From positions 1,822 through 65,821 of the forward strand of contig JBBRWS010000005.1 in NCBI GenBank assembly GCA_038249055.1: a stretch of 64,000 nt of DNA, written 5' to 3'. The translations under genes and the position numbers were made by a program. The notes under the pieces were generated by a model, which worked only from the letters and a program-made list of their open reading frames with translations, was not told the origin of the DNA and ran no database searches. Shown here piece by piece: positions 1,129 to 46,468 of the stretch. Position 1 is the first letter of the stretch, and each line of letters opens with the position of its first letter. The stretch comes from Minisyncoccia bacterium. GTDB lineage: Bacteria > Patescibacteriota > Minisyncoccia > Phycocordibacterales > UBA9973.

Positions 1129-1381
1129 ATGAGTCTTGTTAGGAGTCACGGTCTCAGTAAATAACGGAAAAAATGAAATAAAAAAAATTAATTAATTTAA
1201 CACGAGTAGACTGTAGTTAGTTTTAAGCTAACCACTACCTGCTTCTAAATGGGATGAGTCCCTGTTCGCGATGTGCATGTTATACTTCTAACAGAAATTT
1301 CAAATTTTGATAAAATAAATATTATTAACTAAAATTAATCAGATACGTCCCGTCTAAGGAGGGACTATCTCTAACGGGATG
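1129..1381 (+). promoter_or_regulatory. Structured 5'-leader inverted-repeat element, instance 1 (5' arm ATGAGTCTTGTTAGGAGTCACGGTC; 3' arm TATCTCTAACGGG abutting the pilB ATG)
   Basis: Member of a recurring arm pair (see findings); TATAAT-like -10 hexamer ends about 8 nt upstream of the 5' arm; SD-like AAGGAGGG lies about 15 nt upstream of the ATG inside the element. Confidence 0.5.
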
Positions 1382-6807: not shown

Positions 6808-6942
6808 ATGAGTCCCGTTAGAAGCTGCGGTCGCAGTGAAAGGTGGGAAATATAAGTAATTTTAGTAATTTTAGTAATTTAAGTTTAATTTAGCGGGTTG
6901 ATATCATTTTATAAATGAACGCAACCTGTTTCTAATAGGATG
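6808..6942 (+). promoter_or_regulatory. Structured 5'-leader inverted-repeat element, instance 2 (5' arm ATGAGTCCCGTTAGAAGCTGCGGTCGCAGTG; 3' arm CGCAACCTGTTTCTAATAGGA abutting the PBP ATG)
   Basis: Arms pair with G-U wobbles; the loop carries a (TAGTAATTT)x3 microrepeat; extended -10-like TGATATGAT just upstream of the 5' arm; no SD next to the ATG. Confidence 0.5.
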
Positions 6943-9830: not shown

Positions 9831-10928
9831 CTACTTATTCATTGGCATAACTAAATACATAAAAGAAGGATCTCCTACTCCTTTAATAATCATTGGTTTA
9901 TTACTTCCATCCAGCTCAATACTTAAACTGTCTCCGGAAATAGATTGAAAGCAGTCTAATATATATTTATAATTAAAATTAGCAGAAACACTGTCTCCTG
10001 ATAATGCTCCAGATATTTGAGTTGTATTTTCTCCTACATCAATATTTTTTGATTCTATTTCAAATACTTTATCATTTGGTTTAATGGTTAAAATAATTTG
10101 ATTATATTTACCCGAAAAAATATTAGATATTTTTAAAGATGAAATAAAGTCTTGTTTTAAAACAATAGCTTGAGTTGTTGGATTTTTAGGAATAATTTGT
10201 TTATAGTCTGGAAAACTTCCATCCACAATGCGTGAGGTTAAATAAATGTTTTCTACAGAAAAAGATATTTGGTTTTTTTGAAGTGTAACTTTAATATCAT
10301 CCTCTATTCCATCAAAAACTTTTATTATTTCAACCACGTTTTTATAAGGTATTAATATACCAGAAAAAGATAGTTTTTGTTTTATTTTTATTTTCTTTTC
10401 TGCTAAACGGAAAGAATCAGTTGAAACAAAAACCAACATATCATCTTCTGGATAAATATAAACACTTCCTATTTCTGGTTTTATTTCTGAAATAGAAGCA
10501 CTATAATAAACTGATTTAATGCCGTCAATAAATTTTTTTGTTTGGATTAAAAAACTTTCTCCCTCCACTATTGGTATAGTTGGAAAGTCTTCATGTGAAA
10601 TACTTTTCAATAAAATTGTACTTGTTTTTGTTTTAACTAATAAGTTTCCATTTATTAATTCAAAACTAACCATTAAGTCTCCTTGTAAAATAGAAAACAA
10701 AGAAGATAAAATATCTCCACGAACAGCAACAACTCCTTCTTTTTCTATTTTAGCAGGAATTTCAATCTCTATTCCTATATTTAAATTTGTAGCCCTAAGT
10801 TTTAATGTTTTACCGGTAGCAACCCATAAAACAGAACCGAGAACAGGGAGTGTTAAATTTTTACCTGTTATTCTTTCTACTGAAACTAATGCTTTTTTAA
10901 TTCTATCTATTGAACATTCTATTTTCAT
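9831..10928 (-). CDS. dnaN: DNA polymerase III beta sliding clamp
   Basis: 365 aa; three-domain clamp-like pattern; immediately downstream of dnaA on the same strand. Confidence 0.9.
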   Translation of the reverse strand: MKIECSIDRIKKALVSVERITGKNLTLPVLGSVLWVATGKTLKLRATNLNIGIEIEIPAKIEKEGVVAVRGDILSSLFSILQGDLMVSFELINGNLLVKTKTSTILLKSISHEDFPTIPIVEGESFLIQTKKFIDGIKSVYYSASISEIKPEIGSVYIYPEDDMLVFVSTDSFRLAEKKIKIKQKLSFSGILIPYKNVVEIIKVFDGIEDDIKVTLQKNQISFSVENIYLTSRIVDGSFPDYKQIIPKNPTTQAIVLKQDFISSLKISNIFSGKYNQIILTIKPNDKVFEIESKNIDVGENTTQISGALSGDSVSANFNYKYILDCFQSISGDSLSIELDGSNKPMIIKGVGDPSFMYLVMPMNK

Positions 10929-11180
10929 AATATTTTTTTTATTAAATGACTAATTGTAATCTACTATTGTTTATAACTTATATATTAATACTTACTATTA
11001 CTATTATAGGTGTGAATATGTGAATTACTAATAAACACAATAAAACTAAACCTTTTTTTATAATTATTAATTTAATTATAATTATAACTTGTTGATTATT
11101 TTTTCTTTTTTAAATTAACAACTATTTTTCCACATTTTTAATTTCTTTAAACACAACTTTTCCACAGACTTATTAGTTTT
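10929..11180. other. oriC segment 1 (dnaA-dnaN intergenic): AT-rich with DnaA-box-like 9-mers (TTTTCCACA x2; TGTGAATAT)
   Basis: 252-nt, about 15% GC, noncoding region between dnaA and dnaN containing 8/9 matches to TTATCCACA. Confidence 0.6.
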
Positions 11181-12554
11181 TTATTTAAACATAATTCTAA
11201 TCTTTTCTATTTCTTGTAATAAAGATGGATCTGTTTTTAAATCCACCTTTATTTTTAAATGAGAGTGGATTACGGTTGTGTGGTCTCTATCCCCTAATTT
11301 TTGACCTATTAATGGATATGAAATATTAAAATCTTCACGAAGTAAATACATTGCAACTTGCCTAGCTCTAACAATTTCTTTTCTTCTTGTTTTTTCATAA
11401 ATAACTTCTTCCGCAAGGCCGTAATGGTCTGCTACAATTTTAACAATATCTTTAATAGCAACAGTTTTTTTAGGTCTAATGTTGTTTTTTATAAGTGTTT
11501 TAACTTCAGATAAAGTTAATGCTCTATTTTTTAATTGAGACTGACAAATAACAGTATTTAAACTACCCTCAAGTTCTCTTATGTTCCCTTCTAGTGATTC
11601 TGCTAAAGAAGAAACTATTTCTGGTTCAATTATACAATTAGTAGATTCAAATTTTGCTTTTATTATAGCAACACGAGATTCATAATCTGGTTCAACTATT
11701 TGAACCGTCATACCAGAAGCAAAACGAGACTGTAATCTGTCCTCAAGTCCTTGAATAAAATTTGGGTGCTTATCAGAAGAAAAAATTATTTGTTTATTGT
11801 TTTCATATAAGGTATTAAAAAGATGAAATAGCTCTTCTTGTGTTTTGTCTTTTCCAGAGATAAATTGAATATCGTCCATTATAATTACATCATATTTTCT
11901 ATATTTTTCTTTAAATGAATTAGGGTTTTTATTTTGAATAGAATTTATATAATCGATAGTAAACCGCTCTAAAGAAACATAATAAACCTTTTTTAAAGGG
12001 TGGTTTATTTTAATAGTATTACCTATTGCTTGAATCATGTGTGTTTTACCCAACCCTGTTCCCCCATAAACAAAAAAAGGATTATAGTTTTGACCAGGGT
12101 TTGTTATTATTGCTTGAGCAACAGCATAAGCAAGCTCATTAAAAGGGCCAACAATAAAAGAATTAAAATTATATTTGGGGTTTAAATTATCTTCTTTGTT
12201 TATATATAAATCATTTAAAGGAAGTTCTTTGTTTATGTTTACGGGTGTTTTTATTATAACCCGATCATTATTTTTAATTTCTTGATCATATTTTGATTCT
12301 TGTTTGTGTATAAAATATTCAACACCACGAATACTATCTTCGTTACCAATAAGAGTTTTTAGAATAAGTTTATGAAATTTATTATAAAGCCAATCTTTAA
12401 CAAATTCATTTGGAACTCCTACGTGAATAACACCTGCATCTTCCTTTATTATATAGGTATTTTTGAACCAAGTTGTAAAATTAGCTTTTGAAATACTTAA
12501 TTCAATTTCTAATAGGCACTTGTTCCAGAGTTCTTTTGTTTCCATAGGGCCCAT
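11181..12554 (-). CDS. dnaA: Chromosomal replication initiator DnaA
   Basis: 457 aa; AAA+ Walker A GGTGLGKTH, Walker B, C-terminal DnaA-box-binding helix-turn-helix. Confidence 0.95.
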   Translation of the reverse strand: MGPMETKELWNKCLLEIELSISKANFTTWFKNTYIIKEDAGVIHVGVPNEFVKDWLYNKFHKLILKTLIGNEDSIRGVEYFIHKQESKYDQEIKNNDRVIIKTPVNINKELPLNDLYINKEDNLNPKYNFNSFIVGPFNELAYAVAQAIITNPGQNYNPFFVYGGTGLGKTHMIQAIGNTIKINHPLKKVYYVSLERFTIDYINSIQNKNPNSFKEKYRKYDVIIMDDIQFISGKDKTQEELFHLFNTLYENNKQIIFSSDKHPNFIQGLEDRLQSRFASGMTVQIVEPDYESRVAIIKAKFESTNCIIEPEIVSSLAESLEGNIRELEGSLNTVICQSQLKNRALTLSEVKTLIKNNIRPKKTVAIKDIVKIVADHYGLAEEVIYEKTRRKEIVRARQVAMYLLREDFNISYPLIGQKLGDRDHTTVIHSHLKIKVDLKTDPSLLQEIEKIRIMFK

Positions 12555-14189: not shown

Positions 14190-14292
14190 TCCCGATAGAA
14201 ATTTAACAAACAAACAAAACATGGTAAGTTTTAAAGGGATAAAAATAAAGTAAGTCCAAACCATTAGCAACTAATAAATTTCACACGGGATG
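14190..14292 (+). promoter_or_regulatory. Degenerate instance 5 of the 5'-leader inverted-repeat element (TCCCGATAGAAAT ... ATTTCACACGGG abutting the jag ATG)
   Basis: Outer 5 bp of each arm complementary (TCCCG/CGGGA, GAAAT/ATTTC); weaker than the other instances. Confidence 0.25.
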
Positions 14293-16393: not shown

Positions 16394-17875
16394 TTAATTA
16401 AAAGCAGAACCGCAATATCTTTTATCACCAAGCCAAGCACTTTTATTTGCTGTGTATAAACTTTTTGCAATCTCTAAGTTTTTAGTTGAATCTAGTAGTA
16501 TATTTTTACATTTTTCATATAATGCTTCTTTTCCTGGTAGTAAAGAACAACTAAAACCATTATTATATTTTGGCTCTATTGCATCTTTTCCGGCTACTTT
16601 TTTATCAAACAAACCTACACATTCACTTCCCGCAAGTATACCATTTGCAGATAAATTTATTTGAAATAAACCAAAAGAAAAAGGTGTTTTACCTGGATTG
16701 CAAACATCGGTTCCACTGATTGCGTTTGTTCCACTACTTTCCATATTACAAATTTTTGACATTGCTACTGCATCATTCGGAAAATATTTAGTTAAATTTT
16801 GAACGGTGCAAGGAGAGCTAGGAGTTGTAACTGGTGTGCAGCGAATACTTTCACCATTTGAATTTTTGGGATCAGCAATACCTCTATCGTATAAAGGTTC
16901 GATACTCGCATTAACTGATTTAATGTTTATACCACCCTTCCCTAACAAGTCAGGGTTTATAGTATTTAACAAAGCGTAAGAACCAAGAGCAATTAATAAA
17001 CCTAAAATTGCCGAAGTAATTCTACTCTTGGCCTCAGTTTTTCCAAAAATAGATTCATCTCCCATATATTGAACTCCACCAATAACAATCATAATGACAG
17101 CAAGAACTCCACAAAGACCGATGGCCATTAAAAATATAGTATTAAAATATTCACCTATATTTTCAGGTGCAGTAGTTAATTTTCCTATAGGTGCTAGGAG
17201 TTTATATACCGCCGGTGTTTTGTTTGAAATATCTGTTTTAGGTGTTACAACAAAAGGTTTATCGTCTGTTCCAAGAGGTAAAATTTCTAAAAATTTTCCA
17301 TCCTCCAAGCAAGTTGCACCGTCACATTCGTAATATAGATTACCACTGGGTTTATTTAATGACTGATAAACAACACTACCATCTTTGTATAATTTAAAAT
17401 ATAAATTACAATCAAAACCTGGTCCATGTTCGCACACCTCTTCACCCAGTTGAATATGTATTGCAGAGTTGTCTGTTGGAAGTTTAATGTTTTGTTCATA
17501 TAAACCAGAATCAGTTAGAGGGTCATCAAAAGCCAGACCATCAGTTTCATAAACACTAAAAGAGATATCTGGGTAATTAATACAATCTTTTGTCTTAATT
17601 ATAATATCAGCAGTAGTTGTTCCTTCTTTAAAAAATCCATCTGGTTGTTCACCATACGGATCCCACCCAGCTGAATTAATAGTACAATCGGCTGCAGAAA
17701 CAAGGTTTTTTTGAAAAGATAAGTTATTAAAACCACTTAAGACGATATTAAAAGGTAATAAAATATTAAATATTAAAAAAACTATTAATATATAAAATGA
17801 TGTTTTTTTCATCACATTAGAAACTAATGATAATGAATTATTTTTTACTATTATATTTTTTTTATTAATTTTCAT
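16394..17875 (-). CDS. T4SS-associated cell-wall hydrolase candidate: membrane protein with C-terminal VirB1/SLT-like lytic transglycosylase domain
   Basis: 493 aa; signal/TM at N-terminus, two central TMs, C-terminal ESSGTNAISGTDV...FSFGLFQINLS matching the SLT catalytic Glu and GLxQ motif. Confidence 0.5.
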   Translation of the reverse strand: MKINKKNIIVKNNSLSLVSNVMKKTSFYILIVFLIFNILLPFNIVLSGFNNLSFQKNLVSAADCTINSAGWDPYGEQPDGFFKEGTTTADIIIKTKDCINYPDISFSVYETDGLAFDDPLTDSGLYEQNIKLPTDNSAIHIQLGEEVCEHGPGFDCNLYFKLYKDGSVVYQSLNKPSGNLYYECDGATCLEDGKFLEILPLGTDDKPFVVTPKTDISNKTPAVYKLLAPIGKLTTAPENIGEYFNTIFLMAIGLCGVLAVIMIVIGGVQYMGDESIFGKTEAKSRITSAILGLLIALGSYALLNTINPDLLGKGGINIKSVNASIEPLYDRGIADPKNSNGESIRCTPVTTPSSPCTVQNLTKYFPNDAVAMSKICNMESSGTNAISGTDVCNPGKTPFSFGLFQINLSANGILAGSECVGLFDKKVAGKDAIEPKYNNGFSCSLLPGKEALYEKCKNILLDSTKNLEIAKSLYTANKSAWLGDKRYCGSAFN

Positions 17876-17907
17876 ATTTTTTACTATAGTTTCTAACTAG
17901 ACAGATA

Positions 17908-18939
17908 TTACAAATTTATTTTTAATTGATTACTAGCTTTTTGGAATAATTCATTCATGTTTTCCATTGTAAAATTTATAGTCGCATATCCTCCACGTGA
18001 AGCCGGTCTAATGGTTAATTCGTTTCTTTTTGAAGGAGTTAATATATCTTCACTGTTTATTTTCCAATTATAACTAAAATCAGATTCATTTCCTTTTGTT
18101 GAAAAAAAATAAGGTTCAGCAACTACGGTCATTTCATCCTCATTCATAACAGTTTCTTTGTCAAGGGCATTATTATATAATATTCCCTCCGTTGGTGATT
18201 TTTTGTAAAATATTACAGTTGGTTTATACATAGGTATTTCTATTGTATTTTCTGATCCATAATTTCCACCAACAGCAGAAGCAGTTACTGATATTTGACT
18301 TTTTTCATCAAAAATACTATTTTTAAAAACATAAGAATTTTTACCATAACCAGAGGCATCTAGGTTGGTTTGACTATTATTTTTCCAAGTATATGAAATA
18401 TTTCCACTTCCAGATTTTATGCTATTAGTGTTAGGTATTGCTACTGCTCTAACAAGATCACCCATAATCGGTAAGGCTTTACCTTTGTAAAATGGAGGTG
18501 TATATCCATTAATAGATTCCCACATTATTTCAACTTCCGAAGGAATTATAATAATTTTTTTTGTTATTGTATTTAAAGACCCCACTAGCCTAATACTTAT
18601 ATTTATAATACTTGTAACATCTGGACCTTGTGCTTTAAAGGTATAGCTTTTTTTACCGATACCAGAAAGACTTGTAGTAGAGTCGGTTTGCCATGTTATT
18701 ATGGCTTTATTCAAATCAGTTGCGTAACTAGATAGAGTGATTGTCACATCTTGATATGGTTGCGGATTATTTGGAACTGTTTCAACATTAATTTCACCTT
18801 CTTGTACTTCTATTTGTGTCTCCGCAAAAGAAAAACCGGGCATATTTATTATTCCTAGAATAAAAAACCCAATAAGAAAAAATTTTATTTTTATAAATTT
18901 CACTATGTATATTATATAATAATCTTGTAAACCAAACAA
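17908..18939 (-). CDS. Secreted beta-rich protein with N-terminal membrane anchor (possible VirB8/TcpC-like channel component)
   Basis: 343 aa; N-terminal TM then soluble domain; assignment by position and topology only. Confidence 0.3.
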   Translation of the reverse strand: MFGLQDYYIIYIVKFIKIKFFLIGFFILGIINMPGFSFAETQIEVQEGEINVETVPNNPQPYQDVTITLSSYATDLNKAIITWQTDSTTSLSGIGKKSYTFKAQGPDVTSIINISIRLVGSLNTITKKIIIIPSEVEIMWESINGYTPPFYKGKALPIMGDLVRAVAIPNTNSIKSGSGNISYTWKNNSQTNLDASGYGKNSYVFKNSIFDEKSQISVTASAVGGNYGSENTIEIPMYKPTVIFYKKSPTEGILYNNALDKETVMNEDEMTVVAEPYFFSTKGNESDFSYNWKINSEDILTPSKRNELTIRPASRGGYATINFTMENMNELFQKASNQLKINL

Positions 18940-18991: not shown

Positions 18992-20824
18992 CTATTTATT
19001 ATTTGAAGCCAATAGTTCACTTTTTGCTTTTTTAATAGCAAGAATTTGAGAAGGGTCTGAGGTTATAATCTGGTCTTCTGTATATGAAGCAATTGTCTTT
19101 ATTGCGACGTGTTTTAAACCAGCAAAGAATATACCCTCCCCCACATTTGCTTCAAGTAATAGATATTTTTCTTCGTCGGTAAGATTGAAGGTTTTTTGGA
19201 GAACATCTATGGTTGCTGGCGATTGCTTTAGGAGTAATTGTATAGATGAGTTTGTAACAATAGGAATACCATACGGGCTTTTCATAAAATCCCCTACGTC
19301 TTGAGTAATAGTAGCAAGTCCTAAATAGTATTTTCTTCCACGTTTTGCAATTGAATATAAGAATGAAGCAGTATCTTCTGATTTCATCATCCACCAAGCC
19401 TCATCAACTACAAGTAATCTTTTTTTAATATTTTTACGAATAGCATTCCATATATAATGAGTAATTATATACATAGCAACAGGTTTAAGTTCGTCTTCCA
19501 TGTCTCTCACAGAGAAAACAATAAATTTTCTATTAATATCTACGTTTGATGGCTGGTTTAAGAAAGCAGACCATGAACCATGTGTATATTTAACTAAACG
19601 TTGCATAAGTGATTCACTCCCCTCCATACCAGAAAGAACAACTTCGAAGTCTGATAACATAGGAGGTTCAATATTCATAAAATCTGAATCAGTAGTAATA
19701 TCTTTTAGAGCGTATGTTTCAGTAATAGCCGCATCAATAATAGAATCTTCTTCTGGAGTAAGACCTCCAAGCATTATACGAAACAACCCAACAAGGTTTA
19801 TTGTGTTTGCTCTTAAAACATCTGCCCCTGTTTCTTCTCCTGTAGGTATTGGTAAATCAAATGGATTTATATGGTGGTCTGAAGATAAGGCAATATTAAA
19901 GTATCTACCTCCTACTGCTTCGGCTAAATATTCATATTCACGTTCAGGGTCTATTACAATAACTTCAGTATCAAACATTAGAGTACGAATTATTTCTAAT
20001 TTTGTTGCATAAGATTTACCCGCACCAGCAGTTGCAAAAGTTATAGAGTTATAGTTAGGTAAAGAAAATCTGTCAAAAAGAATTAAGCTGGAGTTGTGGC
20101 GGTTTACTCCATAGAGTATTCCTTTGTCTTCGGTTAGGTCAAAAGAAACAAAAGGAAAAATACTTGAAAGTGGTTCAGTGTTTAATTTTTGGTGTATACC
20201 TAATAGGTCTGTACCTAGAGGTATTACGCTCTTAAAACCCTCATTTTGCTGGAATAAAGCAGGTTTAAGATAAATAAGTTTTGATTCAAGAAGAGATTTT
20301 ATTTCATTCTCAATTTTAAATAAATCGTTATCATTTTCAGCATAAACTGTAATATAAAGTCCTACATCAAACATTTTTTCTTGGGCTTGCATAAGATTAT
20401 CTCTTAAATCTTCAAGATCTCTATATGCAGTATCAAGCATTGGATCACGAACAAGTCCTTTAGATTCACGAATAGAAATCTGACTTTGTACTTCAGCAAC
20501 CTTTTTTTGAAATGATCTTAATATTTCGGCGGTTTCAATTGGGTGTATAAAAATAGAAATATCAAAAACCTTATCCAAATTAACAATAGGAGAAAACCAA
20601 TTGTCACTCAAATATCTAGGATATGATATAACGAAAAAGGTTCTTGCTATTTTATCTCCAAGATTTAGTGATTTGGGTGTGATTTGAAGAGCAGAAGGTG
20701 CAATAATATCTTGAAGTTCAAGAGTTGCAGCTTTATATATTTCACTCGGCAAAACCGGCATAACCATGCTTTTATGGCTAGATAAATCTTTTTTGCCTCC
20801 AAATAATGATGATAATATTGACAT
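18992..20824 (-). CDS. virB4: VirB4/TraC/TrbE-family conjugal-transfer ATPase, ATPase (C-terminal) portion
   Basis: 610 aa; Walker A FATAGAGKSY, Walker B LLVVDEAWWMM (VirB4-type DEAW), conserved C-terminal motifs. Confidence 0.8.
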   Translation of the reverse strand: MSILSSLFGGKKDLSSHKSMVMPVLPSEIYKAATLELQDIIAPSALQITPKSLNLGDKIARTFFVISYPRYLSDNWFSPIVNLDKVFDISIFIHPIETAEILRSFQKKVAEVQSQISIRESKGLVRDPMLDTAYRDLEDLRDNLMQAQEKMFDVGLYITVYAENDNDLFKIENEIKSLLESKLIYLKPALFQQNEGFKSVIPLGTDLLGIHQKLNTEPLSSIFPFVSFDLTEDKGILYGVNRHNSSLILFDRFSLPNYNSITFATAGAGKSYATKLEIIRTLMFDTEVIVIDPEREYEYLAEAVGGRYFNIALSSDHHINPFDLPIPTGEETGADVLRANTINLVGLFRIMLGGLTPEEDSIIDAAITETYALKDITTDSDFMNIEPPMLSDFEVVLSGMEGSESLMQRLVKYTHGSWSAFLNQPSNVDINRKFIVFSVRDMEDELKPVAMYIITHYIWNAIRKNIKKRLLVVDEAWWMMKSEDTASFLYSIAKRGRKYYLGLATITQDVGDFMKSPYGIPIVTNSSIQLLLKQSPATIDVLQKTFNLTDEEKYLLLEANVGEGIFFAGLKHVAIKTIASYTEDQIITSDPSQILAIKKAKSELLASNNK

Positions 20825-21103
20825 CCCGTTAGAGATAGGAAGCGCCTAATCTATTTTTAAGATAACGCTTTCCCATTCCCGATTTTAAATATAATTCTCT
20901 CGACCGAGATTTTTCTTCGCTCTTACATGCTTCATAATAAATAATTTCAAACGGTCCTCTTCCTTTTGCATAAACAGACAGACCATTGTTGTGTTGTAGA
21001 AGGCGTTTCCGTAAATCTTTTGTACTTCCTGTGTATATATTACCATCTTTTTTACTTTTTAATATATAGGTGTAATAAAACATATATAATCTCTAACGGG
21101 ACC
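20822..21103 (-). promoter_or_regulatory. Instance 3 of the inverted-repeat element: 5' arm GGTCCCGTTAGAGAT directly before the GIY-YIG ATG; 3' arm CTATCTCTAACGGG directly before the virB4(C) ATG; the GIY-YIG ORF occupies the loop
   Basis: Perfect 13-nt arm complementarity (TCCCGTTAGAGAT / ATCTCTAACGGGA); TACAAT -10-like hexamer just upstream of the 5' arm. Confidence 0.5.
20829..21083 (-). CDS. GIY-YIG domain-only endonuclease (UPF0213/YhbQ-like)
   Basis: 84 aa; YTYILKSKKDGNIYTGSTKDLRKRLLQHN matches the GIY-x10-YIG / R / E catalytic layout. Confidence 0.7.
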   Translation of the reverse strand: MFYYTYILKSKKDGNIYTGSTKDLRKRLLQHNNGLSVYAKGRGPFEIIYYEACKSEEKSRSRELYLKSGMGKRYLKNRLGASYL

Positions 21104-21108
21104 AGTTA

Positions 21109-21762
21109 TTATTGTATTTTCATTCCCTGGCTAGTATCTCCTGGGTTAAATGTCTTATAAAAAAGTTCGACAACTTGATCTGTTTTAAGTTCAGATGTTC
21201 TTATTCCAACTCTACCGAGACCACTCATAATAACTCCTACTCTTTGGTCGAGTTGTGTTCTTTTTTCTTCAAAAGAAGCCAAATCCATAGCCTTCTTCGT
21301 ATCCTCTACTTGTTTTTTAGGAGCACTTCCACCAAGGAAACCCTCCATTATTTTATTGCCGGATTTTATTACAGTAGGACTATATGGAACAACAATAAAG
21401 AATGTTTTTGTCATTATGTTTACTTCGTCTGTAAAAGATTTAATAAAATCTATATATTCTTTGGTCTGAATTTTCAAAAGAGGCTCTGCTTGTTCTTTTA
21501 GTCTAACTTCTAGAGTAAGAAGATATGGTCGTATATCTAATCTGCGGGATTGCATACATATTTGAGTAGGAAAATCTAAGCCGTTTATAAAATTTTGGAA
21601 TTCATGTATGATGGCAGCTTGTTCGTCGGATGATTTTAAGGAAAGGTTTAAGGAAGATGCCAATAAAACAGCACGAAGACTACCATCTTTTAAAACAATG
21701 ATACCATTTCGAACTTCTTTTATTGGGACAAACTCTTGTGAACTCTTTGCGCTAATAGCCAT
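21109..21762 (-). CDS. VirB4/TrbE N-terminal domain protein (CagE_TrbE_VirB-like), separate ORF upstream of the ATPase portion
   Basis: 217 aa; IVLKDGSLRAVLLASSLNLSLKSSDEQAAIIHEFQNFINGL resembles the VirB4 N-terminal region (hydrophobic-KDGS-hydrophobic, EE..-rich second block). Confidence 0.5.
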   Translation of the reverse strand: MAISAKSSQEFVPIKEVRNGIIVLKDGSLRAVLLASSLNLSLKSSDEQAAIIHEFQNFINGLDFPTQICMQSRRLDIRPYLLTLEVRLKEQAEPLLKIQTKEYIDFIKSFTDEVNIMTKTFFIVVPYSPTVIKSGNKIMEGFLGGSAPKKQVEDTKKAMDLASFEEKRTQLDQRVGVIMSGLGRVGIRTSELKTDQVVELFYKTFNPGDTSQGMKIQ

Positions 21763-21874: not shown

Positions 21875-22294
21875 TTATTTACTCCCCTCATCTTTTCCCT
21901 GCACGTCTAAACTCCAAGAAAGATCCTTGATTTTATTAGTTGTTGTCATTGGTACAATAGATACCAACGGCGCAGTCTGTGAATCTTCCTCTTTTTCTTT
22001 GTCACCCGGTTTTACTAGTCTTTGTTTCCATATATATAATTTACTGGACATAAGATAATTAATGCCAGCCTCAAGATAAAAGATAAAAGGTTTTTCATTA
22101 ATTTTATAAAAAACCAGAAGAAAAGATAAAGTTCCTACTATTAGAATCGGAATAAGTCCAAGCCAAAAACCAAGAATTTTATATATAACAAATATTATTC
22201 CTCCCCCACCTAAAAGATATATAAATTGACGAAAAGAAAATGGGCCAAACAGCTTATCTTCGACGTCAATAAATTGTGGAACTTTAAATTGCAT
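21875..22294 (-). CDS. Small two-TM membrane protein, VirB3/PrgI-like candidate
   Basis: 139 aa; hairpin of two TMs at residues about 25-75; directly upstream of the VirB4 N-terminal ORF as in Gram-positive T4SS operons. Confidence 0.35.
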   Translation of the reverse strand: MQFKVPQFIDVEDKLFGPFSFRQFIYLLGGGGIIFVIYKILGFWLGLIPILIVGTLSFLLVFYKINEKPFIFYLEAGINYLMSSKLYIWKQRLVKPGDKEKEEDSQTAPLVSIVPMTTTNKIKDLSWSLDVQGKDEGSK

Positions 22295-22338: not shown

Positions 22339-23394
22339 CTAAAACGCTTCTCGATATGGGTCGTGTGATTTTAGAGGCTGTTTTAATTTATCTCCTGTGT
22401 CATTTGCAGAAGGGGTCGTCATTTTTGTGGCAGTATAATCAGATACTGTGTGATCACTCATGGTCACACTTTTTAATTTCTCTTCCAAAATACTCATTGG
22501 AATATCTTTTGGCATACTATCTATACCGGGAGTAGTTTCGATTTTTTTTATTGGCCAAGAATCTTTTAATTCATCTTTTGTGGTGAGAGGTAATTCTATC
22601 CCTTCTGTTTCCATATTGGTTTGCTTGGTTTTTTCTTCAATTTCTGGAGCACTGCTTATTTTAGCTTCTTTTTTTGCATAAGGAGGAAGAGGTACATCTT
22701 CTCCACTTTCAACTTCTAGTGGTGCACTTTTTGTTATCTCATCTCCTTTATGTAACATTAAATCTCTAATATTTTTTAAAATATTTTCATTTACATCTTT
22801 TACAAGATTTGTAAGATTTTCTTTTGAAAGGACTATTTTAGAGTTTATACCACCTTCATATTCATCTGGGTGTATTTTATTTTGAATTAAACTAACCGTA
22901 AGGTCCTCCAAAATACCCTGCTGTTCAATATTGAGTTTATATTCTTTTGATATTTCGTAAAGTTTAATTCTCCAATCAGAGATGGCTATTGCTTCTTGAA
23001 TATCTTTTGGCATGCTAATAAAACGAGGGTCAAGAATTAATGGCTTGTTAACAAAGACTACTTTTTCTTTTTCAAAAATCTTTTTTTCTAACCCTGATTG
23101 TATTTTTTTGAAGATTTGCCTATCTAATTCATTTAATAGGTCAGACACTTCATTTTTTGATAACAATAATCTTTTTTCCAGTTCACTCTCATACTCATCA
23201 GGGTTTAAAATTCCGCAAAGAAGAAGCTCTGTTTCTGTTGTTAGGTTGTCAATTTGTTCGACTGTATATTTATCGTTCATCCCTTCTATAACATATTTCC
23301 AATTTACAGCATCAATAGCCTCCTTGCTTTCTTTTGTAAGTAGTTTTTTTGCTTCATCTATTTTAATTTGTAATATGTCTGTTGTGTAATCCAT
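22339..23394 (-). CDS. Hypothetical acidic coiled-coil protein (paralogous N-terminal domain shared with 23409..23861)
   Basis: 351 aa; N-terminal approx. 100 aa align with the neighbouring ORF (ILQxKI, AIxxVxW, IxxLxxETxLxLxGxxN). Confidence 0.45.
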   Translation of the reverse strand: MDYTTDILQIKIDEAKKLLTKESKEAIDAVNWKYVIEGMNDKYTVEQIDNLTTETELLLCGILNPDEYESELEKRLLLSKNEVSDLLNELDRQIFKKIQSGLEKKIFEKEKVVFVNKPLILDPRFISMPKDIQEAIAISDWRIKLYEISKEYKLNIEQQGILEDLTVSLIQNKIHPDEYEGGINSKIVLSKENLTNLVKDVNENILKNIRDLMLHKGDEITKSAPLEVESGEDVPLPPYAKKEAKISSAPEIEEKTKQTNMETEGIELPLTTKDELKDSWPIKKIETTPGIDSMPKDIPMSILEEKLKSVTMSDHTVSDYTATKMTTPSANDTGDKLKQPLKSHDPYREAF

Positions 23395-23408
23395 TTTTTT
23401 ATTTTTGT

Positions 23409-23861
23409 TTATAAACGATTATTTAAAGACGGAAGTTTAATATTTGTATTATTTTCTTCGTTTAAAAAAGCTGAATAATCTCCACCCGAAATAATAAAAT
23501 TTATTGTTTGCTTCCAATTTAATTGTTTGCTTCCTAAATTATTTCTTATATCGTCTTCAATTTTTATTGCTACTGGTTTAAATATTTTTTCAGTAATTTC
23601 ATCCGTTATTTTTTTGAGATCATCCTCTTTTAATTGAATCTCGTTTTGAATATTAAAAGAAAAATTATTTAAATTAACTAAACCCGTTAAAATTAATCCT
23701 GTTTCTACTTGTAATCTTTCTATCTCTTCATCAATAAGTCCAAATTTTATTCCAACCTCTTCAGTTTTTTTAACCCAGTCAACAGAATTAATAGCATCCC
23801 GATTTATTTTTGGAAGCTTTAATATTTCATCTTTAATTTTTTGTTGTAATATTTCTGTCAT
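23409..23861 (-). CDS. Hypothetical protein, paralog of the N-terminal domain of 22339..23394
   Basis: 150 aa; see alignment above. Confidence 0.45.
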   Translation of the reverse strand: MTEILQQKIKDEILKLPKINRDAINSVDWVKKTEEVGIKFGLIDEEIERLQVETGLILTGLVNLNNFSFNIQNEIQLKEDDLKKITDEITEKIFKPVAIKIEDDIRNNLGSKQLNWKQTINFIISGGDYSAFLNEENNTNIKLPSLNNRL

Positions 23862-23870
23862 AAATTTATA

Positions 23871-26621
23871 TTAATGAGTTGGTGCGTGCCCAGCACTTGC
23901 GGGGGCTGTTCCTGCTGGTTTTGCTGCTGCTGCAGGTGTTGGGTGTGCAGGCGCAGGACTTCCCCCTCCTCCATGTGAACTAACACTTTTGGTTACAATA
24001 CCTAATCTTATATTATCTACGGCTTCATCGGTACCCTTTCTTGTACTTCCTGCAGATAAAATATTAGCCCATTTGTTTAAATTACTGCCAAGCATTGTCG
24101 CGTATTCTTTTGCAAGCTGATTACTGTCGTGTTCAATTTTGTGATCAATATCTTTAATTTCTTTGGTAACACCTATTATATTTTTACCGTTTTGTGCACC
24201 TGTATCAGTATAATAATTATTCGTTCCAGCAATTTGACCACCAGATTTAATATTACTTAATTTACTATTTTCTACTCTAATTTCAGTAGAAATTCTAGCC
24301 CTTTCACCTGGGTCTGCTTCATCACTTAGTTGTTGTCTTAGTCTAACTAGGTTAGCGTCAATATCATGAATATCTTTTGAGTATTTATCCTCAATAATTT
24401 TTTTATCAACATTTGCCTTTCTTTTTTTGATTTCACTATCTTTATTAACAATTTTCTTGAGGTCTTCTGCTCTCTTTGTTCTTTTTGCAAGTTTATCTTC
24501 TTCTGCTTTTTTATAGCCACCCTCTTTTGGCTTACCGAGACTCTTTAATCCAGTATCAGAGAGACCTTTACCTGCAATTTTTACTCCACGAAGGTCCATA
24601 CTTCCACTACCCGCAGCTGCTCCACCCTTCAATAACATTTTAGCCCCAAATCCCTTAATTCCACCTTTTGATTCAATCTCAGCTAATTTACTTGAACTGG
24701 CCATTTTACTACCCAATCTACCAAGTGTTGCCCTTCCAGCTATTGCTGCTCCTCCAGTTGCTACTCCAAGAGCAAGTCCTCCTGCAACTGCTCCAACTTT
24801 TGATATAGCAGCACCTACTTCTCCAGACATATCTACAGCGATACTTTTTGCTTTCATTAGAAGAATCATTATAAAAGCGAAAGGAACTACGATAGCAATA
24901 ACAAAAGTCAATCCACCCTTACCTGTTTTCATACTAGCATCAATGATACCAAGTCCTTTATCCATAAATCCCACAATAATATACATAAAAAATGCAAACA
25001 CAGGAGCAACAAAAGCCATTTTTAAAGTATCTGGCCACCATTTTTTCCACCCTATCATTTTTATATCTTGAAGTTGGGGTACTATATAACTAAAAAATGC
25101 GAGAGGTGCCAAAATCATTGCTAGCCATAGTCCGACAACTCTTGCTATAAAAACAAAAGCGGAAGACAAAAAAGCTATAGTTCCAACGATGTTTACGGCC
25201 GTTGCAAGGAAAATAACTATTATAAAAGTACCAGTTGAAATACCCTGTTTTGTTTTTGTTTGGTCTTCACCGGTCATAGTTCCTCTAATTGGTATAGACT
25301 CAACTTCACTGGCTCTCATTATAAGTTCTTGTGGATTTACTTTTGAAACAATAGCTTCAGATAATTTAATTTCTCCAAAATCACCCAATTCACTTTTAGT
25401 TGGAAGAGGGTTACCACTAGCATCTTTTTGGGCAGTACCAGTAACAATTGTTTTTTGATTATAAAATACTCGAGTTAAAATATTTGAAGCATCTATTATT
25501 ACTTGGGTTGCAAACAAACTAAAATTTATCAAAAGCCCGATAATAACAACATTTATTATCATTTCTTTTGTTTTGACATTGTGTAAATTTAAAATAGTTC
25601 CAAATGCAATATAGAGCAAAACGAAAATAAAGAACATATTACAAAAATCTTTTACTATTCCCCATCCTTCTACAACAAAAGATGAACGATAAGAAGTGTC
25701 ACTAATAGAATACATCAATGTAAAGTCTAATGCTTTTCCAGAAAGACCAAAAACAAATGAAGATGTTTTAAAAAATAAGTAATATAGAGCTTGAGCAATA
25801 CAACCTGAAAACCAAGAACTTGGGCTAGTAACATCACAAGTTGGAAGATCTCCAGCATTGCTTCCTTCTGATATTTTAACTTCACCACTACCCAGAGCAC
25901 CTATATTTTGTTGTATTTTGTTTGCAGTTGTTAAAGGATTTAATGTTGCTGCAGGAAAGTAACTTTTTTCTTCTGTAACTCCAGAAATTGATTCTCCATT
26001 ACCCTCCGCACTTCCGCACTGCGACGCCGTACAAGCAAGATAGTATAATGTTGTTTTATAAGAAGTATCTGGTTCCAATTGTGTAAAGTCGCCATTTATA
26101 TTTTTTCTAATAGAAATATCCAACTCTATACTAGTAGGCATTGTAGATTCCCCTCTCATTTCTGTATAATTTTTACCAGGTGGAGTTAAAATAAATGAAG
26201 TAGCATCTAACCACCCAACTTTATTTGTTTTTAAATTTTCAAATTTTAAAATAAAAGTATTAGGAGTTTCAAAATTTTTACAAGCACCCCCTAAAGTAAG
26301 AACACACGTCGCAATATTACCTGAAGTTGCTACATATTTCCAAGCATCGCTTGCGTTGGAATTTTTAGGTAATCCCGTATCTAATATAAGATGTAGGTCT
26401 GCAGTTGCCAGTGTTTCATCTACGTAAGTTGTATTATTGCGACTTAAAATACTAGCTGAAAAGTTTTGAGTGAATGCTTCTTTTGAGCCATCTCTTTCTA
26501 CTGCTTCTGCTTTTGAACTTTTTATTTCTATACTTTTTCCATCTAACCCAACACTAATAGGCGCGAAGAGATTCGCGAAGATGATAAAAGATATTAAAGT
26601 ATATGATAAAACTTTTTTCAT
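23871..26621 (-). CDS. Large polytopic membrane protein with signal peptide and Pro/Ala-rich C-terminal tail; VirB6/TrbL-like candidate
   Basis: 916 aa; N-terminal signal; about 300-aa periplasmic region; at least 6 TMs between residues about 290-620; coiled-coil; C-terminus GGGGSPAPAHPTPAAAAKPAGTAPASAGHAPTH encoded by a locally GC-rich segment. Confidence 0.35.
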   Translation of the reverse strand: MKKVLSYTLISFIIFANLFAPISVGLDGKSIEIKSSKAEAVERDGSKEAFTQNFSASILSRNNTTYVDETLATADLHLILDTGLPKNSNASDAWKYVATSGNIATCVLTLGGACKNFETPNTFILKFENLKTNKVGWLDATSFILTPPGKNYTEMRGESTMPTSIELDISIRKNINGDFTQLEPDTSYKTTLYYLACTASQCGSAEGNGESISGVTEEKSYFPAATLNPLTTANKIQQNIGALGSGEVKISEGSNAGDLPTCDVTSPSSWFSGCIAQALYYLFFKTSSFVFGLSGKALDFTLMYSISDTSYRSSFVVEGWGIVKDFCNMFFIFVLLYIAFGTILNLHNVKTKEMIINVVIIGLLINFSLFATQVIIDASNILTRVFYNQKTIVTGTAQKDASGNPLPTKSELGDFGEIKLSEAIVSKVNPQELIMRASEVESIPIRGTMTGEDQTKTKQGISTGTFIIVIFLATAVNIVGTIAFLSSAFVFIARVVGLWLAMILAPLAFFSYIVPQLQDIKMIGWKKWWPDTLKMAFVAPVFAFFMYIIVGFMDKGLGIIDASMKTGKGGLTFVIAIVVPFAFIMILLMKAKSIAVDMSGEVGAAISKVGAVAGGLALGVATGGAAIAGRATLGRLGSKMASSSKLAEIESKGGIKGFGAKMLLKGGAAAGSGSMDLRGVKIAGKGLSDTGLKSLGKPKEGGYKKAEEDKLAKRTKRAEDLKKIVNKDSEIKKRKANVDKKIIEDKYSKDIHDIDANLVRLRQQLSDEADPGERARISTEIRVENSKLSNIKSGGQIAGTNNYYTDTGAQNGKNIIGVTKEIKDIDHKIEHDSNQLAKEYATMLGSNLNKWANILSAGSTRKGTDEAVDNIRLGIVTKSVSSHGGGGSPAPAHPTPAAAAKPAGTAPASAGHAPTH

Positions 26622-26654
26622 TTATTATCTAACAAAACCATTATAGCATTTTAA

Positions 26655-26690
26655 TTTAATATTAAATTAAAATGCTAATTTTTTAAACAA
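26655..26690. repeat. Perfect AT-only palindrome TAGCATTTTAATTTAAT/ATTAAATTAAAATGCTA between two co-oriented cluster genes
   Basis: 16-bp perfect inverted repeat; candidate operator or weak attenuator. Confidence 0.4.
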
Positions 26691-26800
26691 AAACTTAACT
26701 AAAAACTTCAGATTCATTTCATCTCCACTTCCTAATTTAATTATTAATTAGTAGTTTTGATTTAATAAAATCTCTCCTAGATTAATTATTAATTAAACCA

Positions 26801-29800
26801 CTACCAAATATTTAAAATTCTTTCTGTGCTATTCATATCTATGCTATCTACCCATTTACAACCCCTATCTATATTTTGATAATAATTACTAGGAAGTCCT
26901 CCCTCTGATCCTGTTTTTAATCCAGTTCCCCATGCCCAACAGTTTGAATATTCATTATTACCTATATTAAAGTTATTAAAGGTATCACAATCAATTCCGT
27001 CTGTAGTTTTACCTGTAAAATATCCAGATGCAACCCTGCATGATACATTTCTACCACTAGCATTATATATAGGTTCTAATAAACCAACTTCAGTGTAGCC
27101 AAATTGATCAGTGTCGGTGTCTGCTATTTTGTAAGGGTATGAACCATTTGTTCCTTTTGTATACCATGGATTTCCATGTCTAATTCCTGTAAAACCATTA
27201 GCATAAGGATTCGTTCCAAGATTAAATACAAAATTACTGTTTGCTTCTCTTGCAAATTCTGCTCCAGAATTAGCTTCACACAAATCTTTGTTACGTGAGC
27301 AAAAATCATTAAAACCACTATTATCATTTAGTTCCAAGTAGCATTTTTTTGTTAGGTTATCAATTTGACTAGCAAAATTTGTATTCTGTTCAATCTCATT
27401 ATATATTGTTGAAATATCTTCTACTGTTTTAAGGGATGATGATATTAGATAAAATTTGCGAAGCAATATGTCCAGTTGTGCTTTTTCTGCATCGTTAAAT
27501 GTTAAAGGGTTTTGTTCTATTAATAAACATTTATTGGCTCCACCACTTTCACATTTGTCCCCGTTTACAACTTTAGGTGGCTTACAGTCAGATTTATTTA
27601 TACATGCTTTTGTCTCAGTATCAGTTATCATCGGAGAAACACAAGGTCCAGGAACTTCACACTTGTCCCCAATTACAATTTTAGGTGACTTACAATCAGA
27701 TTTATTTATACATGCTTTTGTCTCAGTATCAGTTATCATCGGAGAAACACAAGGTCCAGGAACTTCACACTTGTCCCCAATTACAATTTTAGGTGACTTA
27801 CAGTCAGATTTATTTATACACAGTTTAGTTTCAGTGTCTGTGATTTTTGGAGAAAGACAAGGTACTGGTAATGAACTTGTTACTGTAAATGTTGTCCAGG
27901 CTCCACAGTTATTGTTTTCATTTACTTCTGTAATTAATCCATCGTCTACTGCTGATTTTTTATCTGCACAGGCACGTATATAATATGTACCCGCAGAAGT
28001 AAATTTATATGAAACTTTTGCAGTGTTACTAGTTTTTGGTGACATTATTGGAATAGTAACATCAAGCGACACCAGAGAAGAAGAGTTAGATGAGCTACTT
28101 GTACCAGGATTACTTTGAGTTATTGCAAAGAAAGATGAAAATGTTTTTAAAGTAGAACCACCCCCAATATTTGTTATTGTTGAGGAAAGCGTTGTTTGTG
28201 TATTTATAAGAGAGCTTGCAGGAGTAACATTTCCAGCTGTTAAATCAGGTTCTGTTCCTGAAGGAGAAGTTGATTCTGAGTTGTGTTCAGCTACATATTC
28301 TTTATTTAAATCCCCATTAACGTGACACTCAGGATCCGCATTGTCTATTAGTAAGTCGTTGTCGTTATTATTTATTTTATCGTTACATTCATATTTTGTT
28401 TCACCAAATCCACTTACAAAAATATTTACAAAACCAGCACCTGAGCCGAGATCTCCTTTACAGGTTACAGAGTATGAAGTATTTTCTGTAAGTGGTCCTG
28501 TTTCAAAAGAGCCAGCAGTAGCAGTTCCTCTTCCAGTTCCTGCATCACAAGATGTACTGTTTGTTGAGGTCCAATTAATAGTTGAAGAAGCTCCAAGTGC
28601 AACTGAACTCGGACTGGCAGTAACTTTGACTGTTGGAAAAGTATTACTTCCACCGGTAACAAAAACATAAACACTATTGTTGCTTGAACCGTTTAATCCC
28701 GTACATGTTACTGAATATGAATTACTGTCTTTGAGTGGTCCTGTTTCAAAAGAACCAGAAGTTCCAGACCCCCTTCCAGTTCCTGCGTCACAAGACGTAC
28801 TGTTTGTGGAAGTCCAACTTATAGTTGAAGATGCACCAGGAGCAACTGAACTTGGGCTAGCTGTAACACGGACTGTTGGAAATTTATTTCCAAAACCAAA
28901 ATCGTCACAAGTAGGAGGATTTATTGCTCCGTTTATACATTTATTAGAATCAATAGGACCAGTAGTACAAACAGGAGGATTTGTTGCTCCATTTATACAT
29001 TTATTAGAATCAATAGGACCAGTAGTACAAACAGGAGGATTTGTTGTTCCATTTATACACTTGTTGTCGGTACCCACGTTACAAATCTCAGGATTTATTG
29101 CTCCATTTAGACATTTATTATCAGAAGTAATAGTACAAAGCGGAGGATTAATTGTTCCATTTATACACTTATTGTCAGAAGTAATAGTACAAAGCTGAGG
29201 ATTTGTTGCCCCATTGAGACACTTGTTGTCAGAGCCAATAGTACAAAGCTGAGGATTTGTTGCCCCATTGAGACACTTGTTGTCAGAGCCAATAGTACAA
29301 AGCTGAGGATTTGTTGCCCCATTAAGACATTTATTATCGGAGCCCACAGTACAAATTGGAGGATTAATTGTTCCATTTATACATTTATTATCAGAAGTAA
29401 TAGTACAAAGTGGAGGATTAATTGTTCCATTCACACATTTATTTTCAGAACCTATAGTACAAAGCGGAGGATTAATAGCTCCATTAATACATTCACTTTC
29501 TAAAATACTATCGCAAAGAGGAGGGTTGTTTGCTTTGTTTAGACACGTATTGTCAGAGTTAATAGTACAAAGCGGAGGATTAATTGTTCCATTTATACAT
29601 TTATTATCAGACCCTACAGTACAAAGCGGAGGATTAATTGTTCCATTTAAACATGAACCATTTACTAAAATAGTACAAAGTGGAGGATTAATTGTTTCGT
29701 TTAAACATAAATTACGTGAAACTGTAGTACAATTTGGGGGGTTGTTTGCCCCATTTAAACATAAATTATTTGAGTCTATAGTACAAAGTGGAGAATTAAC

Positions 29801-30775: not shown

Positions 30776-30801
30776 AATTTATTTAATATATTAACTATTT
30801 A

Positions 30802-46347: not shown

Positions 46348-46468
46348 CCCGTTAGAAGCAGGTCGTGGTCTTTTAAAACTCACATACCTACCTAATTAAA
46401 TTGTTATATTATATGAACCCGCCATATTTTCTATAGATGCCATGACCACGGCTTCTAACGGGACTCAT
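46345..46468 (-). promoter_or_regulatory. Instance 4 of the inverted-repeat 5'-leader element (5' arm ATGAGTCCCGTTAGAAGCCGTGGTC; 3' arm GACCACGACCTGCTTCTAACGGG + ATG) between rpsO and the NYN gene
   Basis: About 22-bp near-perfect long-range stem enclosing about 65 nt; the start codon immediately follows the 3' arm. Confidence 0.55.

Follow-up and report, generated by a model that had tools for sequence, protein, structure and literature searches.

The 64,000-nt stretch of DNA analysed here (the window; positions 1,822 to 65,821 of contig JBBRWS010000005.1, from a Minisyncoccia bacterium) carries on its minus strand a virB4 locus of a type IV secretion system (T4SS), in which a small gene for a GIY-YIG nuclease lies between the gene for the VirB4 N-terminal domain and the gene for the VirB4 ATPase. 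The best overall explanation, to which we assign a probability of about 0.65, is that a small element that targets start codons and encodes a nuclease of the UPF0213 type inserted into a virB4 that already consisted of two genes. There is very little doubt that the unit is mobile, is bounded by repeats and makes target duplications at start codons; the proposal that the nuclease is the enzyme that moves it, which we infer from sequence comparisons, is given close to an even chance. The element is composed of 13-bp terminal inverted repeats and a single 84-amino acid (aa) nuclease open reading frame (ORF), about 277 bp in all, and integrates at start codons (ATGRA), duplicating about 5 bp from the ATG on and always lying in the same orientation as the host gene. 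In the window it would have inserted at the start codon of the ATPase gene, at a time when that gene was already separate from, and coupled to, the N-domain gene (TAA-t-ATG).

The GIY-YIG element, its insertion sites and its non-coding relatives

The ORF list placed all three ORFs on the minus strand at the coordinates given by an earlier reading made from the letters alone (the sequence-only reading): the 217-aa N-terminal-domain gene at 21762 to 21109, the 84-aa GIY-YIG nuclease ORF of the UPF0213/YhbQ type at 21083 to 20829, and the 610-aa ATPase gene at 20824 to 18992, whose own start codon is the insertion target. The first of these, from its ORF and profile matches, encodes a stand-alone TrsD/TraD-like protein. 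The element (20825..21101, minus strand) measures 277 bp with its leading T, or 276 bp from CCCG to CGGG, and a 7-nt spacer, TAACTGG (21102..21108, minus strand), lies between it and the stop codon of the N-domain gene. Its 5′ terminal inverted repeat, TCCCGTTAGAGAT (21089..21101, minus strand), ends 5 nt before the GIY-YIG ATG, and its 3′ repeat, ATCTCTAACGGG followed by A (20824..20836, minus strand), holds the nuclease stop codon TAA and ends on the A of the ATPase ATG. The GIY-YIG gene had been described as bracketed by two repeat arms, and these indeed form a perfect 13-nt inverted repeat (TCCCGTTAGAGAT / ATCTCTAACGGGA, at 21101-21089 and 20836-20824); by a rough estimate, about 0.002 such pairs would be expected by chance in a 550-nt region.

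Insertion sites were gathered from the genomic contexts of proteins closely related to the 84-aa one (77-95% identity, 83-92 aa), which are very numerous in Paceibacteria. This resulted in 69 non-redundant sites (L and P numbers below are our handles for loci and proteins), all with the same ends, at which the unit reads (T/C)CCCGTTAGAGAT ... ATCTCTAACGGG and spans 272-284 bp, mostly 276 bp. At 53 of the 69 sites it lies directly against the ATG of a host ORF (60 codons or more) in the same orientation, and at none of the 69 does a divergent host gene begin at the 5′ end, no case of opposite orientation having been found. An exact flanking duplication of 4-6 bp is present at 46 of the 69 sites (5 bp in 38 of these), and 40 of the 46 duplications start with ATG (ATGAA, ATGGA, ATGAG, ATGGG, ATGCA and others), the remainder including GTAAA, GCTGG, ATAAA and ATATG. 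The reconstructed targets have the consensus ATGRA and show no conservation upstream of the ATG; A occupies position +5 at 37 of 40 sites, versus 30 of 46 ORF starts in the window. Among the host genes, which have no relation to one another, are bipA and genes for 6-phosphogluconate dehydrogenase (6PGD), a HAD hydrolase, a Fic protein and a 196-aa protein, and nuclease proteins of identical sequence occur at different loci (P0177). In other genomes, elements were also observed before the start of the prgI-like gene (ATGCAATTCAAAGTTCCACAA; L115, L134 and L135, 1184-1459) and at the start of the virB4 N-domain gene (ATGGCAATTAGTGCAAAA; L138, 1184-1459), and together with the element at the ATPase start these make three consecutive genes of the operon independent targets.

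The initial bases of the element and of its 3′ flank vary together, T being matched by A at 58 sites and C by G at nine, and the duplication may be one of 4 bp plus a shared base. At four loci (L165, L167, L181 and L183) the elements have C as first base (CCCCGTTAGAG...CGGGG), the duplications start with G (GTAAA, GCTGG) and the sites lie outside start codons. In L102-L104 (1984-2290) and L171 (about 1457-1470) another 5′ repeat directly follows the element, the copies being nested or in tandem; the L102 copy adjoins an NYN-domain gene, and a non-coding copy in the window likewise precedes an NYN-domain gene. In a further locus, L108, the 5′ flank is that of the Fic-site copy and the 3′ flank that of the HAD-site copy (compared with L109/L118 and L136); either element copies have recombined or the assembly is chimeric at the repeat.

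The 84-aa protein matched the Pfam GIY-YIG family PF01541 (E=7e-17) over residues 3-69, its only domain, and the nearest relatives of solved structure are the UPF0213 proteins BH0048 (PDB 1zg2, E=7.6e-9) and EF2693 (1ywl, 0.005), with SLX1 a weak third (0.35). The residues Y6, Y17, G19, R27, H31 and E63, and also K67, are invariant in 53 of 53 aligned sequences. These matches place the protein in the UPF0213/YhbQ branch of the GIY-YIG superfamily, the type to which the sequence-only reading had ascribed it. Among 27 distinct 276-nt units from different sites, the ORF is intact in 24, the median pairwise ratio of non-synonymous to synonymous divergence (dN/dS) is 0.11 with a dS of 0.81, and the column entropy within the nuclease gene is 0.55, 0.59 and 0.99 at codon positions 1, 2 and 3, respectively. 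Mean column entropy in the 5′ repeat is 0.11, and both repeats stand at about 0.1 versus the 0.99 of third codon positions. At the level of sequence, then, purifying selection is evident on the nuclease ORF and on the repeats. Positions 1-9 of the repeat (CCCGTTAGA) are almost invariant, and at positions 10-12 there are 15 compensating changes between the arms versus one that is one-sided, which indicates selection either for the arms to pair or for the two ends to be recognised symmetrically. We identify the arms as terminal inverted repeats of the GIY-YIG unit itself and not as a host leader, since they travel with the GIY-YIG ORF to the 69 sites and do so with target-site duplications.

Shorter, non-coding units of 89-127 nt, with the ends and the host-ATG duplications of the GIY-YIG element, were found in the related loci described below and in the window. 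We class these copies as MITEs (miniature inverted-repeat transposable elements), that is, as putative non-autonomous members of the element family. Six of them lie within the window, where the sequence-only reading had listed them as instances of a "leader element". One of 116 nt (46348..46463, minus strand) precedes the NYN-domain gene and one of 127 nt (6813..6939, plus strand) precedes a PBP1A-type gene with its ATG at 6940, both with the target duplication ATGAG. A copy whose 3′ end is like that of the GIY-YIG element (1259..1378, plus strand) stands directly before the ATG (1379) of a pilB-type ATPase gene (T2SSE match) with ATGAG on both sides, in tandem with a more degenerate copy (1134..1253, plus strand), so that ATGAG occurs at 1129, 1254 and 1379; the regenerated start codon of the pilB-type gene (window 1129-1383, plus strand) has apparently been hit twice. 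The two remaining copies are a degenerate MITE (14190..14289, plus strand) before a 157-aa ORF with its ATG at 14290, and a degenerate MITE-like hairpin (17813..17901, minus strand) before an internal ATG (17812) of a T4SS-pilin-like ORF (T4SS_pilin match).

The clearest view of such an insertion is a filled and an empty allele with flanks 93-96% identical, in L061 and L062. The empty allele (L062) reads TAATATGGGAATT, and the filled allele (L061) reads TAAT-ATGGG-[TCCCG...116 nt...ACGGG]-ATGGG-AATT, with ATGGG duplicated. One MITE subtype (copies in L048, L061, L062 and L065, and window 1259-1378) has the TCCTATCTCTAACGGG end of the GIY-YIG units, which fits a derivation from these units. A conserved mini-ORF of about 24-38 codons ending at the same TAA (...IAIYF or ...ICF) was seen in copies of L007, L010, L055, L057 and L061; it was rejected as a general feature, being missing from window 46348-46463 and from L002 7812-7918.

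In the subfamily of the window copy, the TAA of the nuclease gene falls within the 3′ repeat and is separated by 4 nt from the host ATG (TAA CGGG ATG). A sister subfamily that is about 65-70% identical (many of L142-L191, e.g. L146 1180-1454) has a second stop-start design, its ORF continuing through the 3′ repeat to a TGA that overlaps the host ATG as ATGA (ACGGGATGA). Folded as RNA, the repeats pair into a hairpin with the host ATG at the end of its 3′ arm; the folding energy is -66 kcal/mol (z = -3.25) for the GIY-YIG region and -43.6 kcal/mol (z = -5.35) for the hairpin of the non-coding copy before the NYN gene. No terminator-like site was detected between the three ORFs in a promoter and terminator scan, and promoter-like sites were fewer than in shuffles, which leaves the scan without value as evidence. 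No promoter can be recognised within the element, and host transcription is probably what supplies the nuclease. Shine-Dalgarno sequences are missing from most genes of the source genome. Ribosomes that finish the nuclease ORF may unfold the hairpin of the repeats and begin anew on the host gene, by which the insertion would be tolerated, and at the virB4 junction a two-step relay would replace the ancestral TAA-t-ATG coupling.

The proposed mobilising enzyme and competing explanations

The nuclease is the only ORF in the element, there being no room for another in 276 bp, and the element encodes no transposase of a known class (DDE, DEDD, HUH, serine or tyrosine). It is proposed as the mobilising enzyme because it is the sole cargo seen, occupies a fixed position and is under purifying selection. 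In the full form of this proposal, which we rate as somewhat short of even odds, the 84-aa GIY-YIG nuclease would itself be the transposase of the 277-bp element, would recognise the hairpin or cruciform of its own repeats, would target ATGRA start codons and would rely on coupling of termination to re-initiation, with non-coding derivatives across Paceibacteria, members of the Candidate Phyla Radiation (CPR). The nuclease may cut the hairpin or cruciform formed by the repeats, much as SLX1, to which it is related, cuts branched DNA; a structure-specific cut at the base of such a hairpin or cruciform is the most plausible mode of action given that the protein consists of the catalytic domain alone and is a relative of SLX1. 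In 0.98 Mb of flanking sequence, the distance between paired ends is bimodal, clustering at about 100-150 nt and at about 250-300 nt. These 0.98 Mb, where one 3,961-nt pair in L025 was not examined, yielded no larger unit that has these ends and a plausible transposase. The few repeat pairs of 700-880 nt all end at the 3′ arm of a GIY-YIG element, and probably join that arm with the 5′ arm of a neighbouring copy.

Several points weigh against the explanation that we prefer. An 84-aa GIY-YIG domain stands here without a DNA-binding domain, and its ability to carry out excision and integration is one that we infer. We know of no GIY-YIG transposase in prokaryotes, and a search of the literature was also empty. 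The search for a larger unit covered 0.98 Mb of flanking DNA, and a transposase acting from elsewhere in the genome is possible. A dS of 0.81 is that of an old family, and a benefit to the host could account for the purifying selection as well. Many non-coding copies lack an ORF through the 3′ arm; coupling is consequently not the sole route by which the host genes are expressed. Lastly, 23 of the 69 sites have no exact duplication, the window copy among them, its flanks being ACTGG on the 5′ side and ATGTC on the 3′ side. At about 10 sites the 5′ flank takes the form A-(one or two pyrimidines)-TG(G), e.g. ACTGG, ACTTGG, ATCTG, ACCTG or ATTGG, and resembles an upstream ATG copy that has been interrupted. 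For the window copy, comparison with the empty-site relative L001, which reads TATACTAT-ATGGGA where L003 reads TATACTGG-[element], suggests that a small deletion took out the upstream ATG, and the ACTGG of the spacer is probably a degenerate remnant of the upstream target copy.

The main rival holds that a transposase encoded elsewhere moves the units and that the GIY-YIG ORF is a passenger, e.g. a selfish nuclease or one useful to the host. The lack of any known prokaryotic GIY-YIG transposase and the reduction of the protein to its catalytic domain speak for it, as does the fact that non-coding copies evidently move without an ORF of their own. However, a passenger would hardly be expected to be the sole cargo at 69 sites, with position, orientation and a stop codon inside the repeat all fixed, nor to be under such strong purifying selection, and no larger unit with the same ends came to light in the 0.98 Mb; we regard this rival as unlikely.

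Far less probable is a free-standing GIY-YIG homing endonuclease gene, like T4 Seg/Mob, that spread by double-strand-break repair. The GIY-YIG domain, the place between conserved genes, the presence/absence variation among relatives and a weak match (25.5 bits) to a group I intron endonuclease model are all in keeping with it. Homing, however, makes no target duplications and needs no terminal repeats, the targets number dozens and are unrelated except for ATGRA, and copies that have no ORF reach the same kind of target. Moreover, the 84-aa protein has no DNA-binding domain and the model in question (TIGR01453) was matched at 25.5 bits, below its cut-off of 56. A group I intron was rejected as a candidate, the unit being too small and the TIGR01453 match under cut-off. 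An intron or structured RNA was likewise set aside: at the gathering threshold Rfam gave only tRNAs, and at E<=1 nothing credible on the element or on a MITE. As to carriage by phage, CCTATCTCTAACGGGATG had no exact match in viral_contigs.

Slightly less credit still is due to one of the two scenarios offered by the sequence-only reading, in which the arms would be a host regulatory leader hairpin (a translational operator) whose loop was invaded by a GIY-YIG cassette. The same 3′ arm does precede the ATG of several unrelated genes in the window, and the hairpins are stable as RNA. Against this, the hairpin is absent at the orthologous junctions of most relatives, where the empty sites show only TAA-t-ATG and no leader, and the host start codon is duplicated on the two sides of the hairpins. 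The pilB-type gene is preceded by two copies in tandem, the GIY-YIG ORF is never without the arms at a new site, and no Rfam family matches. The leader as host property was accordingly given up; that the GIY-YIG gene is an insertion was borne out by the filled and empty junctions among relatives.

VirB4 as two genes

The 610-aa ORF scored 369.5 bits against the NCBIfam model for the VirB4-like CD1110 family, NF045971 (cut-off 325), over profile positions 183-734 of 752. It contains the motifs GAGKS and VVDEAWW and matched PDB 4ag5, a VirB4-like protein, with E=4e-39, all of which identifies its product as a T4SS ATPase of the VirB4 family. In profile searches the 217-aa ORF matched positions 2-119 of the CD1110 model and positions 102-233 of VirB4_plasma, and its match to the TrsD/TraD model NF041427 (E=8e-6, 25.8 bits) was far under the cut-off of 200. 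We assign it as a VirB4 N-terminal domain, and as no more than a candidate member of the TrsD subfamily. A search of PDB sequences with the 217-aa protein as query gave nothing significant.

The division of VirB4 into an N-domain ORF and an ATPase ORF, as the sequence-only reading had it, was upheld by these profile matches and by alignment to a single-chain VirB4, the 797-aa protein P0332. Residues 1-208 of the 217-aa protein align to residues 1-210 of P0332 (37% identity, E=1e-48), and residues 37-597 of the 610-aa protein align to its residues 230-791 (56% identity). From both alignments, with which the NCBIfam profile coordinates agree, the two ORFs run collinear with a single-chain VirB4, and no part of it is lacking.

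To see how the junction is arranged in relatives we used a set of 80 genome loci from Paceibacteria/Nomurabacteria, with N proteins 59-88% identical to that of the window; 79 hold both genes. In all 79, the N-domain gene ends in a stop codon and is separate from the ATPase gene. At 66 of these loci, which have no GIY-YIG gene, stop and start lie -8 to +15 nt apart, the junction typically reading CAA TAA t ATGGGAATATTTTCA and sometimes being an ATGA overlap; the usual distance from one gene to the other is 1-6 nt (TAA t ATG). A GIY-YIG gene is present in two (L002 and L003), a non-coding insert of 115-120 nt with the same ends as the element in six (L007, L010, L048, L055, L057 and L061), other spacers of 26-84 nt in four, and one locus is anomalous. 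VirB4 is therefore still two ORFs at the 77 loci that have no GIY-YIG gene at this junction.

The stand-alone N protein is not confined to these loci. The best 120 homologues of the N protein are all stand-alone and 215-219 aa long, and in a search of 1.84 billion representative proteins the relatives of the 217-aa protein were mostly stand-alone, of about 195-260 aa. Fused single-chain homologues numbered two of the 150 best representatives (P0332, 797 aa, and P0367, 898 aa). Single-chain VirB4 is confined to distant relatives, and stand-alone forms dominate down to about 35% identity. P0332 and P0367, which are rare and about 37% identical in the N domain, could serve to date the fission. 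In a tree of the concatenated N and ATPase proteins, the junctions that bear a GIY-YIG gene occupy at least three separate positions adjoining empty-site relatives: the window and L003 are sisters with the empty-site L001 adjacent, L002 lies elsewhere in that clade, and L081 falls in a different clade beside the empty-site L044. Taken together, these data identify the two-gene virB4 as ancestral for the group, tightly coupled and, by all indications, older than the insertion of the element.

The least probable explanation, the other scenario of the sequence-only reading, is that the element with its GIY-YIG gene inserted into a continuous virB4 and made two ORFs of it: the ORFs are collinear with single-chain VirB4, GIY-YIG homing endonuclease genes are known to split phage genes, and an element that regenerates an ATG could in principle split a gene at an internal Met codon with both halves expressed, but the separate ORFs at all 79 loci (66 with only 1-15 nt or an overlap between stop and start), the uniform length and the dominance of the stand-alone homologues, the same split without a GIY-YIG gene in staphylococcal TrsD/TraD and the patchiness of the insertion within its clade refute it for this insertion and leave it next to no credence. 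The checks that had been proposed along with it gave a divided result. The 217-aa protein does align to VirB4 N-terminal domains and the two ORFs proved contiguous, as was supposed, whereas no uninterrupted virB4 was found among the 79 loci, and parts that are separate in relatives without any GIY-YIG gene, the outcome named beforehand as refuting the split, were what 77 of the 79 loci presented.

The same organisation is known from staphylococcal conjugative plasmids of the pSK41/pGO1 type (TrsD/TraD and TrsE/TraE; NF041427), in which the N domain is likewise a separate protein of about 200 aa encoded directly upstream of the ATPase gene. Unlike in the staphylococcal system, the host here is a Paceibacteria chromosome, close to dnaA/dnaN, and not a plasmid, and the 217-aa protein matches the family far below its cut-off (25.8 versus 200 bits). 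In the same operon, upstream of the N-domain gene, lies a gene for a PrgI/VirB3-like membrane protein (21875..22294, minus strand; Pfam PrgI match). The genes around virB4 (window 16394-18939 and 22339-33834, minus strand) include one for a T4SS-pilin-like protein, several for large proteins without a Pfam match (916 and 1010 aa) and one for a 1324-aa protein with a weak CARDB match as its sole match; their products are probably poorly characterised surface components of a CPR secretion-like apparatus. The genes dnaN and dnaA lie at window 9831-12554 (minus strand), about 6-10 kb from the secretion-like cluster, and this proximity places the cluster on the chromosome, near the likely replication origin. 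The G+C content of the window is 31%, and its homologues point to a Paceibacteria/Nomurabacteria bacterium of the CPR as its source.

Relation to known systems and significance

No published description of a start-codon GIY-YIG element was found in the literature searched, coverage of which was incomplete, and the element and its MITE relatives are apparently undescribed; one paper on Patescibacteria merely lists GIY-YIG genes as horizontally transferred. The nuclease of the element finds its best sequence matches in the UPF0213/YhbQ proteins and, weakly, in the nuclease domain of SLX1, and has the GIY-YIG catalytic residues in common with them. SLX1 requires SLX4 and functions in repair; to our knowledge the UPF0213/YhbQ proteins are treated as single-copy cellular genes and have never been reported to be mobile.

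The Seg and Mob GIY-YIG endonucleases of T4-like phages are similar in that their genes lie between adjacent conserved genes, are co-transcribed with them and are variably present, and mobE of the Mob family splits nrdA in phage Aeh1. However, these enzymes have at least 200 aa and DNA-binding modules, recognise one long target each and spread through break repair, with neither terminal repeats nor duplications, whereas the GIY-YIG unit has 84 aa, 13-bp repeats, duplications of about 5 bp, dozens of targets and non-coding derivatives. Bacterial MITEs such as the Correia/NEMIS elements of Neisseria and the palindromic elements of Rickettsia resemble the family described here as short palindromic units with terminal inverted repeats and target duplications that form RNA hairpins, often inside transcription units. 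They differ in having classical transposases or no known parent and in not targeting start codons, whereas the MITE family of the window has its only coding relative in an element for a GIY-YIG nuclease, and its duplication starts at the host ATG. Elements of the IS200/IS605 type are also very small, with hairpin-forming ends and short specific targets, but they use an HUH (Y1) transposase, have no terminal inverted repeats, make no duplication and exceed 600 bp. The GIY-YIG element is unlike all insertion sequence families known to us in having no DDE, HUH, serine or tyrosine enzyme.

For annotation, copies of the element create false N-terminal extensions and false "leaders". The longest forms of the ORFs at window 16394-17875 and 45841-46383 (both minus strand) begin inside MITE copies, and the genes themselves probably start at the ATGs that immediately follow the 3′ repeats, at 17812 and 46347. 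In the same way, the duplicated host ATG is where the 92-aa versions of the nuclease (P0144, P0226) begin. Copies can also suggest gene splits that they did not cause.

If the nuclease does move the element, it would represent a new enzymatic class of prokaryotic transposase, and the element would be the smallest autonomous transposable element known, setting the lower size limit at about 277 bp. A nuclease that targets start codons, with its 13-bp repeat, could be of interest as a tool. For the Paceibacteria, a two-gene VirB4 of N-domain and ATPase is the standard form in their type IV secretion-like apparatus. Landing on start codons, regenerating the ATG and ending its ORF 4 nt upstream of it or in an ATGA overlap would make the element a parasite compatible with the very compact operons of the ultra-small CPR bacteria.

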